DNA of 64,000 nucleotides, taken from the NCBI RefSeq assembly GCF_054482595.1, contig NZ_JBTHVH010000001.1. The stretch is one strand, 5' to 3'. The notes beneath the pieces are model-generated. The model saw only the letters and a program-made list of their open reading frames with translations, ran no database searches and was not told the DNA's origin. The stretch is from a plasmid. Shown in pieces: positions 504-1,642 of this stretch; position 1 is the first letter of the stretch; every line of letters starts with the position of its first letter. A program made the translations under genes and the position numbers.

Positions 504-538
504 CTCGTAGAATCTAGTTTGTTAACAGATTCTACGAG
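504..538. promoter_or_regulatory. perfect 12-bp inverted repeat CTCGTAGAATCT-N11-AGATTCTACGAG between two minus-strand genes; candidate operator or terminator
   Basis: Read directly; lies 7 bp upstream of the ATG at 497 and 40 bp downstream of the stop at 578. Confidence 0.4.
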
Positions 539-577
539 TTGTCATTTGTGACAGTATGCTCGCAATCGTAGTGATTA

Positions 578-1117
578 CTACCACCAACTGCTAGCTTTCT
601 TCTCTCTAGCTTTTCCTTCGCTTTGCAGTAAATCTTTACTTCCTGTAGAAATATTTCTATTTGCATCAGCCTCAGACTGAATTACATCTGTCTTAGCTGC
701 TCTCTCCTTCAACTCCTGCTCTATAAAATCGTTTTCTCGCTGGACACGAGCCGCTTTTGCTTGCAGTTCGAGTTTCATGCTTTCGAGTTGCAGCTTGCGA
801 AGCTCATCCTCATAAGCTTGATCTCGCTTCTTGTCATTTGCTAGCTCGGCTTCTCGTTTCGCTCTACGTTCATTTTCTGCAGCAACACGCTGTTTTTCGC
901 GTGCAGCAGCGGCAGATGCTGCTTTTTCTCTTCTAATACGTTCAGCTTGTGCTTGTTGGCGAATAAGTTCTTTTCTGGCATCCTCAGCTTGCTGCTCTTT
1001 AGCTCGCCCTTCATTTTCCGCTTGAGCAATAGCAGCAATTTGACTTTGCAACGAGTTAGCCAAGGCAGTGCCTACACTAAACGTAGAAAAGATTAGAAAT
1101 AAAATAATTTTATTCAT
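578..1117 (-). CDS. secreted coiled-coil protein (N-terminal signal peptide, Ala/Glu/Arg/Lys/Gln-rich helical repeats)
   Basis: Hydrophobic N-terminus ending ALA-NS; heptad-like charged repeats. Confidence 0.5.
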   Translation of the reverse strand: MNKIILFLIFSTFSVGTALANSLQSQIAAIAQAENEGRAKEQQAEDARKELIRQQAQAERIRREKAASAAAAREKQRVAAENERRAKREAELANDKKRDQAYEDELRKLQLESMKLELQAKAARVQRENDFIEQELKERAAKTDVIQSEADANRNISTGSKDLLQSEGKAREKKASSWW

Positions 1118-1120
1118 AAA

Positions 1121-1642
1121 TTATTTCTTTTCTGGACAAGTAGCATTTGGCTGAATTCGAGTTTCATTATCTTTAGTTGAAATAAGCACAGCAAGCCCCG
1201 TTGTAAACTGGCATGCTTTACCAACTTGAGTTGAAGTGAACACCTTAGTTCCTTCTTTATAAGTCAGTGAAACACCTTCAACAATTGTTTTATCACTAAC
1301 CAAAGAACCAGCCGCTGCACCAAGAGCCGCACCACCAGTACCGCCAGCTACAGCACCCAGTGTCGATGTGCCTTTAACATTATAACCGGCAACGCCCCCA
1401 GCAACAGCTCCCAGTACCGCACCAAATGTCTGTGCCGCTTCTTTATTAGCTTTATTATCAACTTTCACTTTAGCTGGAAGCACAGAGATAATATTGACTG
1501 TCTTTGTTTCCTGCTTCGAATTCAATTGAGCGGTATCATAAACATCGGCAGCATAATCAGCACCGCTAGATTGACACCCAGAAAGAAGAATTGCAGATAC
1601 AACAAGAGCGCATAAAGTATACTTTTTAGACATAAGAATCAT
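1121..1642 (-). CDS. lipoprotein with glycine-zipper (GxxxG repeat) region
   Basis: Lipobox LSGC after signal peptide; GAVLGAVAGGVAG and GAVAGGTGGAALGAAAG repeats. Confidence 0.55.
   Translation of the reverse strand: MILMSKKYTLCALVVSAILLSGCQSSGADYAADVYDTAQLNSKQETKTVNIISVLPAKVKVDNKANKEAAQTFGAVLGAVAGGVAGYNVKGTSTLGAVAGGTGGAALGAAAGSLVSDKTIVEGVSLTYKEGTKVFTSTQVGKACQFTTGLAVLISTKDNETRIQPNATCPEKK

Follow-up and report, generated by a model that had tools for sequence, protein, structure and literature searches.

A yfgH-yfgI-like gene pair in the sim slot of a P7-type phage-plasmid, and a candidate leader hairpin at the neighbouring late promoter LPsit

Two genes for envelope-targeted proteins lie beside the immunity module immI in the plasmid DNA considered here, and a perfect inverted repeat lies next to them. 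What the pair does, and whether the repeat belongs to it, are the questions raised by this locus. The window, that is, the whole stretch of 64,000 nucleotides that was analysed, comes from a phage-plasmid of the P1 family and is of the P7 type; positions 1-2300 are 98.8% identical to P7. Our best explanation, to which we give a probability of roughly 0.55, is that the pair is an accessory phage-plasmid copy of the host genes yfgH-yfgI that resides in the P1 sim slot and stabilises the outer membrane, and that the repeat is a separate leader hairpin silencing translation of pmgC from read-through transcripts. Neither the genes nor their resemblance to yfgHI is new, as both are annotated in P7 already. 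The earlier note, made from the letters of the window, overlooked that the pair corresponds to the annotated P7 genes upf50.5 and upf50.0, xenologues of the host operon yfgH-yfgI. The literature search found no paper mentioning upf50.5, upf50.0 or DUF5384.

P1 and the window align co-linearly as far as position ~549 and again from position ~1926. Between these points P1 carries simC-simB-simA on the same strand, whereas the window carries an exchangeable cassette (the P1 "sim slot", ~550-1925, minus strand) in which the yfgHI-like genes stand in for the sim genes at the identical location and orientation. Thus the alignment bears out the placement of the pair at the sim position. Its description as divergent from immI also holds: both cassette genes run along the minus strand, away from c4-icd-ant. 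At the right-hand edge P1 homology picks up again at Op(c4), the C1 operator of the immI operon (1924-1940, plus strand; P7 annotation transferred by co-linearity). On the left lies the 5' part of pmgC, named tubA in P7 (1-497, minus strand; PHROG 1851, E 1e-91), with which the late tail operon pmgC-tub-pmgB-sit begins. The cassette of ~1.4 kb is low in GC (40% vs 47.6% for the whole window). The simABC genes are a published variable region (PMC9603915). Alternative cassettes occupy the slot in 80 IMG/VR loci, and almost all of them encode proteins with signal peptides or membrane proteins.

The upstream gene of the pair (1121-1642, minus strand; 173 aa, 100% identical to P7 Upf50.5) encodes a YfgH-like glycine-zipper lipoprotein, predicted to be sorted to the outer membrane. 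The second ATG, at 1633 (170 aa), is the likelier start, since it is preceded by GGGA and yields a length that agrees with the homologues. The product has the lipobox LLSG-C, whose cysteine is residue 23 of the 173-aa form (...AILLSG-C-QS...) and is invariant across 40 homologues. A lipoprotein signal peptide is annotated in P7, and there is no Asp after the lipidated Cys. The glycine-zipper residues G74, G78, G82, G104 and G108 are invariant in the alignment of homologues, and the Pfam glycine-zipper family PF05433 scores 18.2 bits, under its cut-off of 24.2. Over 171 aa it shares 67% identity with K-12 YfgH (E 6e-73). Single-sequence searches of solved structures gave no match for either protein of the pair. 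The YfgH-family profile, run against SlyB (7ojf_A), matched over the full length (E 1.2e-9, residues 6-153 of 155), and SlyB is also the best Foldseek match of the lipoprotein model (E 1.2e-6, TM 0.57). This monomer model is weak (pLDDT 57) and places helices at 64-88 and 94-113.

The second gene (578-1117, minus strand; 179 aa, 100% identical to P7 Upf50.0) encodes a YfgI-like secreted protein with an N-terminal signal peptide (...GTALA/NS), which is also annotated in P7. Its score with Pfam DUF5384 (PF17358) is 147.8 bits (cut-off 25; E 3e-43), and it is 47% identical to K-12 YfgI. AlphaFold2 gives a single continuous helix over residues 3-178 (pLDDT 88), and the protein is predicted to consist of one helix of about 155-175 residues. 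The DUF5384 profile matched none of the solved structures. The gene begins 3 nt past the lipoprotein stop codon, compared with a gap of 15 nt in K-12, and this 3-nt gap suggests translational coupling. The earlier note had described the two products as a secreted coiled-coil protein and a lipoprotein with a glycine zipper; the signal peptide and long predicted helix of the one, and the lipobox and invariant glycines of the other, agree with this.

In K-12, yfgH and yfgI are adjacent in the same order (b2505-b2506). Synonymous sites are saturated between the phage and chromosomal copies, and therefore the phage pair is an old xenologue, not a recent capture. Both cassette genes are under strong purifying selection: dN/dS is ~0.05 (0.06 and 0.04 for the two genes) in comparison with a diverged phage-plasmid copy. 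The cassette is present at >=99% identity in 168 PLSDB plasmids and in 163 of 5426 complete E. coli genomes (3%). The lists of hits for the yfgH-type and DUF5384 proteins have at least 15 contigs in common. A second pair, 73% identical, is situated at the end of a P2-like prophage next to tail-fibre genes. We rejected TL-2011b as a second phage carrier: its copy is 100% identical to K-12 YfgH, lies beside an ORF of the size of yfgG and has the K-12 spacing, and is read as host flank within the deposited prophage.

The host protein YfgH is reported to be a SlyB-like lipoprotein stabilising the outer membrane (bioRxiv 10.64898/2025.12.22.696046). This function is described in one preprint, which does not mention yfgI. 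By homology, we suggest the following for the phage pair. The lipoprotein, having no Asp after the lipidated Cys, would be sorted to the outer membrane, where its glycine-zipper helical hairpin would insert and assemble into rings of the SlyB/YfgH type. The rings may corral lipids and outer-membrane proteins, thereby making the lysogen's outer membrane more stable when the envelope is stressed. The coiled coil, in the periplasm, would act as a partner of the lipoprotein, as the pair is conserved together. Such a module would benefit the carrier cell, and hence the prophage.

The AT-rich region upstream of the pair (1643-1923, minus strand; 31% GC) is unrelated to the upstream region of chromosomal yfgH, and therefore regulation must differ. 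A promoter carried over from the chromosome was accordingly rejected, as the similarity does not reach beyond the start of the coding region. A diverged cassette shares ~80 nt adjoining the start codon, including the dyad ATTGA-N6-TCAAT at 1706-1721. The sole sigma-70-like match on the minus strand upstream of the pair is at 1909-1881 (9/12). By eye only, and with poor geometry, we also saw a sigma-E-like GGTAACTT-N16-TCTGG and a PhoP-box-like TGTTTA-N5-CGTTCT near the start codon, for which we make no claim. The string AAGTCAATG-GGAG-TATTCT, likewise seen by eye, was rejected as a late promoter: the best matrix score within 1690-1730, upstream of the lipoprotein gene, is 2.8. Because of this score the pair is not regarded as a late gene.

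The same result bears on the possibility that the pair encodes parts of the virion or morphogenesis proteins. The genes do adjoin the tail operon, and in phi456 they are automatically annotated as "minor tail protein" and "tail tip protein". However, no late promoter precedes them, the proteins are homologues of host YfgHI with export signals, and their PHROG families have no structural category. Moreover, P1 and many relatives carrying sim or other cassettes make virions without the pair. As P1 lacks it, the pair would not be needed for virion building, and we consider a structural role highly improbable.

A more serious alternative is that the pair functionally replaces Sim, the ring lipoprotein and a periplasm-spanning coiled coil blocking adsorption of superinfecting phages, whether P1-like or not, or the passage of their DNA across the envelope. 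The slot and orientation are those of simCBA, and the other cassettes of the slot encode, almost without exception, signal-peptide or membrane proteins. Outer-membrane proteins serving as phage receptors are bound by YfgH. There would also be a parallel in TraT, a chromosomal lipoprotein family that plasmids co-opted for surface exclusion, and did so several times (PMC11733297); TraT decamers are the next structural matches after SlyB, and weak precomputed matches to the TraT Pfam family occur in many members of the YfgH family. However, the match of the lipoprotein itself to TraT (PF05818) is 23.1 bits, under the cut-off of 31, Foldseek gave E 0.23-0.28 with TM about 0.2 (E 0.23 and TM 0.22 for the best of these) from a low-confidence query model, and the YfgH-family profile retrieved no TraT chains at E up to 10; membership of the TraT family was therefore rejected. 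Nor did tblastn find similarity to SimA, SimB or SimC in loci with the yfgHI-like cassette, and neither protein has a PADLOC match at E up to 0.01. The 67% identity is to a housekeeping host protein with a reported role in membrane stability, and no phage-resistance phenotype of yfgH or yfgI is reported in the papers found. Replacement of Sim is thus a tentative possibility at best. It is compatible with stabilisation of the outer membrane, the two not being exclusive. Of the earlier suggestion of an exclusion or envelope-remodelling module, the targeting of both proteins to the envelope stands and remodelling fits the role of YfgH (bioRxiv 10.64898/2025.12.22.696046), whereas exclusion had been derived from position only. 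A bolder version seems to us unlikely. Here the cassette would represent a superinfection-exclusion device of a new, phage-encoded type, in which a SlyB-like ring and a ~23-nm coiled coil possibly spanning the periplasm bar access to the receptor or the transit of DNA; like TraT on plasmids, it would have been co-opted, in this case from a host envelope-stress operon. If true, the sim slot would be, in P1-like phage-plasmids, a hotspot where exclusion systems acting at the envelope replace one another.

The second question concerns the inverted repeat. Its arms, CTCGTAGAATCT (504-515) and AGATTCTACGAG (527-538), are perfect over 12 bp and separated by an 11-nt spacer, as noted earlier, and can be extended to 18 nt with 89% complementarity. 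At four places the window has a perfect 12-bp inverted repeat whose loop is 3-20 nt long, where Markov-1 random sequence would be expected to give 0.04. The repeat (504-538) was said to precede the pair. This is correct in plus-strand coordinates; by transcription it is downstream, between the stop codon of the second gene (578) and the start of pmgC (497). Its assignment to the pair does not hold. The repeat lies in flank common to P1 and to every cassette type, where it overlaps LPsit, a late promoter, and the pmgC ribosome-binding site.

LPsit (529-547, minus strand; annotated in P1 and P7) consists of the -22 box AAATGACAA (539-547), the spacer CTCG and the -10 box TAGAAT (529-534), which sits within the upstream arm of the palindrome. 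The Shine-Dalgarno box GAGG (503-506) and the ATG (495-497) of pmgC, read from the sequence, follow at 495-506 on the minus strand, and three of the four GAGG bases fall in the downstream arm. Against the consensus AAGTGACTT-N4-TANNNT, derived from the eight other P7 late promoters, LPsit (AAATGACAA-CTCG-TAGAAT) retains six of nine box positions and the -10 box; with 6.8 bits in the matrix it ranks 70 of 127,964 positions and is a moderate match. It is kept in all relatives with a cassette upstream. A mirror-image plus-strand promoter arising from the other arm was rejected (score -2.7).

With this arrangement the two possible transcripts are predicted to fold differently. The folding energy is -26 to -29 kcal/mol for read-through RNA (z -4.6 to -6.1), but only -7.4 (z -0.4) for RNA begun at 522, taken as the LPsit start on the basis of standard -10 geometry. 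Read-through transcripts from the terminator-less cassette would hold both arms and form a stable hairpin hiding the pmgC ribosome-binding site. Late transcripts would begin ~7 nt past the -10 box, within the loop, and so would be missing the upstream arm and be translatable. In this way the candidate hairpin may insulate the tail operon from cassette transcription. Comparison of relatives is consistent with pairing. In the diverged lineage L074-L077, TAGAAT/ATTCTA becomes TAAAAT/ATTTTA in both arms, while the loop differs in sequence and length; this compensatory change from G-C to A-U keeps the pairing, and amounts to one or two evolutionary events. The palindrome is kept with every cassette type. 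The hairpin is absent in relatives having structural genes upstream of pmgC.

Two other readings of the palindrome were considered. The first is an intrinsic terminator serving the operon within the cassette (sim in P1, yfgHI-like here): a strong hairpin stands directly past the last cassette gene, the minus strand of the cassette has no second site resembling a terminator, and the palindrome is retained with all cassette types. However, GUUUCAAUG after the stem has three U only, the loop of 11 nt is long for a terminator, and the terminator scan makes no call. We regard this as unlikely. Partial termination is nevertheless compatible with the insulation model and may add to the insulation.

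The second, implied by the earlier proposal of an EMSA, takes the palindrome for an operator in the DNA at which a dimeric protein would repress or activate LPsit. Perfect dyad symmetry across the -10 region would suit it, and the symmetric changes of both arms in L074-L077 are expected of a dimer site too. However, the downstream arm falls exactly on the ribosome-binding site. Overall, the half-site spacing goes from 35 bp to 34, and the loop is free to vary in sequence. Lpa has its known box elsewhere, in the separate -22 element, and the dyad is absent from the other eight P7 late promoters, including the very similar AAATGACTA-N4-TAGAAT at 33369-33387. An operator is therefore still less likely in our opinion, and a leader hairpin acting on pmgC translation remains the preferred reading of the palindrome.

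In E. coli and Salmonella, P1/P7-type phage-plasmids are frequent vehicles of resistance genes. A phage copy that strengthened the outer membrane or kept other phages out would amount to lysogenic conversion, with possible consequences for tolerance to detergent, bile or antibiotics and for the outcome of phage therapy. For YfgH-YfgI, a pair that is poorly understood, the cassette also provides a naturally occurring gain-of-function setting. Should the leader hairpin be confirmed, it would be a compact device allowing cargo to be transcribed in the lysogen without leaky synthesis of tail proteins.

Among known systems, the closest to the phage pair are YfgH-YfgI of E. coli and SrgI-SrgL of S. 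Typhi: the same two genes are found in the same order with tight spacing, and the proteins are of similar length (170-173 aa vs 172, and 179 vs 179). The lipobox, the signal peptide, the invariant glycine-zipper residues and two conserved Cys are common to YfgH-YfgI and the phage pair. Unlike YfgH-YfgI, the phage pair is borne by a phage-plasmid in the sim slot, and its AT-rich upstream region is unrelated to the chromosomal yfgH promoter.

SlyB (PDB 7OJF/7OJG), a stress-induced lipoprotein of outer-membrane nanodomains, is related to the phage lipoprotein by full-length profile homology and is its best structural match. The order of elements is the same: lipobox, strand, two glycine-zipper helices, beta domain. 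However, identity is only ~25%, and there is no DUF5384 partner gene beside SlyB. SlyB forms rings, and by homology the phage lipoprotein may do so as well.

SimC, SimB and SimA of P1 share with the pair the slot between Op(c4) and LPsit, the strand, export, and dispensability for lytic growth. They differ in the number and size of the genes, with no detectable sequence relationship, and an exclusion phenotype is known for sim only. Kliem and Dreiseikelmann in 1989, and Maillou and Dreiseikelmann in 1990, are said to have found that sim acts by blocking DNA entry. TraT of F-like plasmids resembles the phage protein in being an outer-membrane lipoprotein that has a glycine-rich helical membrane domain, oligomerises, as the phage protein may too, and belongs to a chromosomal family co-opted by mobile elements; with ~50 more residues, it also carries an extracellular ring domain.

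Finally, LPsit, which is probably Lpa-dependent itself, resembles the Lpa-dependent late promoters of P1 and P7 in its -22 box, with six of nine positions, its 4-nt spacer and its TANNNT -10 box, and is annotated in both genomes. Among the P7 late promoters it is the weakest match to the consensus, and it is the only one whose -10 box lies in one arm of a predicted hairpin with the downstream ribosome-binding site.

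The two leftward genes are a lipoprotein ORF (1121-1642, minus strand) and a DUF5384 ORF (578-1117, minus strand). The 173-aa lipoprotein product carries the lipobox LLSG-C and is 67% identical to E. coli K-12 YfgH across 171 residues; its true length is probably 170 aa, with the start ATG at 1633. A profile of 40 homologues matched SlyB (PDB 7OJF, E 1.2e-9) along the whole chain, and SlyB was the sole significant Foldseek match (E 1.2e-6, TM 0.57) of the low-confidence monomer model (pLDDT 57). The second product (179 aa) belongs to DUF5384 (147.8 bits versus a cut-off of 25), begins with a cleavable signal peptide and shares 47% identity with K-12 YfgI. 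It is predicted as a single unbroken helix (pLDDT 88), which at ~1.5 Å per residue would be roughly 23 nm long, near the width of the periplasm. The envelope targeting of both products proposed in an earlier note thus holds, and the ORFs, their strands and the adjacent palindrome are exactly as described there. The K-12 genes yfgH and yfgI are neighbours in the same order, and many contigs are common to the hit lists of the two proteins. Therefore, the pair is a xenologue of the host yfgHI operon.

According to a December 2025 preprint (bioRxiv 10.64898/2025.12.22.696046), YfgH keeps the outer membrane stable when cells face SDS/EDTA or biogenesis stress, and its overexpression rescues BamA and LptD depletion. 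Mutants in yfgI are sensitive to nalidixic acid. The S. Typhi orthologues of yfgHI, srgIL, are regulated by SdiA.

Positions 1-2300 align along their full length with phage P7 (AF503408, 98.8% identity) and phi456 (99.8%), whereas P1 proper covers about 40% of them, as two pieces. In the P7 record, the C1 operator Op(c4) and the plus-strand genes c4-icd-ant1/2-kilA-repL lie on the right-hand side. Leftward of them, all on the minus strand, follow upf50.5 ([quoted passage not shown]), upf50.0, the late promoter LPsit (529-547) and tubA, the P1 pmgC, heading the tail operon tubA-tubB-tubC-sit. Other names given to these genes look like propagated annotation errors: "DNA methyltransferase" for the YfgH-like lipoprotein in RefSeq phage records NC_050152, NC_031129, NC_042128 and NC_019445 and in PHROG 1277, and "minor tail protein" and "tail tip protein" for the pair in phi456 (OR339795). 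At a different variable site, the P7 record also has nmpC, encoding a porin precursor (L004:25531-26646, outside the window), and therefore P7 has at least two separate outer-membrane-protein cargo loci.

The suggestion that the pair lies where P1 has its superimmunity function was borne out. The P1 alignment is co-linear to about 549, just past the -22 box of LPsit, and resumes at about 1926, at the C1 operator; between the equivalent points P1 carries simC-simB-simA on the same strand as the pair. Among 80 IMG/VR loci around pmgC, simABC occurs in 19 and a yfgHI-like cassette, at least partial, in 16 (13 P7-type, 3 diverged). Further loci encode a long SimA-like secreted protein with a 157-168-aa secreted protein, some adding a protein of 325-394 aa whose C-terminus bears a bacterial SH3 domain, and one encodes a 116-aa membrane protein and a 158-aa secreted protein. 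Locus L060 combines a diverged yfgHI-like pair (84% and 79% identity) with a 419-aa membrane protein containing a DUF559 nuclease-like domain (DUF559/MTES_1575), which has a weak PADLOC match to PDC-S37. Overall, this icd-pmgC interval holds at least five alternative cassettes (loci L005-L079, e.g. L013:1889-3847, L014:1575-3847, L060:2611-3870), most products being signal-peptide or membrane proteins without a Pfam family. The simABC region is one of eight variable, low-GC regions in P1-like phage-plasmids (PMC9603915). P1 SimA (52 aa; L002:4833-4991) is 92-94% identical to the first ~50 residues of secreted proteins of 172-250 aa at the same position in other P1-like elements (L032:1673-2191, L005:2740-3414, L074:2696-3448), and thus P1 simA looks like a truncated 5' remnant of a longer gene.

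The 280-nt region upstream of the pair (31% GC) has no similarity to DNA upstream of chromosomal yfgH, and a promoter scan of it gave only one minus-strand match, weak and sigma-70-like. About 80 nt beside the lipoprotein start codon are conserved in the L060 variant. They include the dyad ATTGATATAAGTCAAT (ATTGA-N6-TCAAT; 1706-1721, minus strand), ~70 nt 5' of the start and kept amid otherwise diverged sequence, which may serve a regulator or form part of a promoter. The best late-promoter matrix score ahead of the pair is 2.8, versus 16-23 for other annotated late promoters, and the pair is therefore not a late structural gene set; P1, too, forms virions without it.

Strong matches to the same matrix (14.8-18.7 bits) were observed at 4510-4528(-), 31664-31682(-), 60262-60280(+) and 22156-22174(+), one of them antisense at the repL start. 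Some are probably annotated P1/P7 late promoters (LPmat, LPdam2); the match at 4510-4528 has no annotation in the P7 stretch examined.

The palindrome (504-538) consists of perfect 12-bp arms around an 11-nt spacer; extended, the arms reach 18 nt at 89% complementarity. It is flanked by the stop of the second gene (578) and the pmgC ATG (497). Its location was given correctly, but in the direction of transcription it follows the pair rather than preceding it. At four sites the window has perfect 12-bp inverted repeats whose loops measure 3-20 nt, versus 0.04 expected in Markov-1 random sequence; the palindrome is not due to chance, yet it is not unique. Three other perfect inverted repeats, short-looped and 12 bp or longer (12694-12722, 16030-16056, 55476-55509), are probably terminators or protein-binding sites. 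The palindrome belongs to the flank common to P1, in which its arms span 11 bp and its loop differs, and accompanies every cassette type.

Nine annotated P7 late promoters yield the consensus AAGTGACTT-N4-TANNNT; LPsit reads AAATGAC(A/T)A-CTCG-TAGAAT. In the direction of transcription, its -10 hexamer sits in the upstream arm of the palindrome, and the downstream arm terminates in GAGG, 5 nt ahead of the pmgC ATG. RNA reading through from the cassette folds into a hairpin of -26 to -29 kcal/mol (z -4.6 to -6.1; no shuffle as stable), whereas RNA begun at 522, assumed as the usual 7 nt past the -10 and inside the loop, showed no significant folding (-7.4 kcal/mol, z -0.4). In the diverged loci L074-L077 the -10 is TAAAAT and the opposite arm has the matching ATTTTA, in a 13-bp stem with a different loop of 8 nt. 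Relatives with structural genes before pmgC lack the hairpin, and their GGAGG site is an ordinary one. A terminator scan found no terminator belonging to the cassette itself. From these features we infer that in cassette-derived read-through transcripts the hairpin would block pmgC translation, and perhaps also partly terminate transcription, while late transcripts driven by Lpa would escape the block; the covariation amounts to one or two events. Another possibility is that the palindrome is a site for a dimeric DNA-binding protein. However, no such dyad was observed at any other late promoter, including a near-identical one at 33369-33387.

The cassette (GC 40%, versus 47.6% for the window) recurs with an identity of at least 99% in 168 PLSDB plasmids (146 Escherichia, 22 Salmonella). 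Among 5426 complete E. coli genomes, 163 carry it, nearly always plasmid-borne. Compared with the L060 copy, the lipoprotein gene has a dN/dS of 0.06 and the DUF5384 gene one of 0.04; selection maintains both genes on the phage-plasmid. A third pair, 73% identical (yfgH-like and DUF5384; L086-L089:6001-7071), ends a P2-like prophage beside tail-fibre genes, and therefore the pair is recurrent prophage cargo. In several E. coli chromosomes this prophage (markers GpU, tail X, GPD, tail fibre, DUF4376) has integrated next to aspS and a gene of the isochorismatase family. A copy in phage TL-2011b was rejected as cargo, as its yfgH is 100% identical to that of K-12. The TL-2011b sequence (L085, JQ011317, 41360-42935) ends with a 192-nt ORF, yfgH and a 540-nt ORF, spaced as in K-12 yfgG-yfgH-yfgI, and looks like the host flank of a prophage integrated beside yfgI.

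The public record already contains the genes, their likeness to E. coli proteins and the late promoter, and it documents that the slot varies. Two things are added here: a connection to the recent report on YfgH function, and the model of a promoter/ribosome-binding-site hairpin. Both are testable, although a specialist would not find either very surprising.

The identity to YfgH and YfgI, the purifying selection and the repeated carriage by prophages jointly favour an envelope function that the phage has kept and that benefits the lysogen. The benefit may be stress tolerance or the exclusion of competing phages. Exclusion is suggested by position: the pair occupies the sim slot, where alternative cassettes mostly encode exported proteins. 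However, the pair has no similarity to the Sim proteins and no PADLOC match, and the lipoprotein fell short of the thresholds for the TraT family. The observation made in the earlier note is confirmed, and its interpretation as a superinfection-exclusion or envelope-remodelling module is partly supported. Exclusion by the lipoprotein would be analogous to TraT, where a chromosomal lipoprotein family was co-opted for surface exclusion (PMC11733297).
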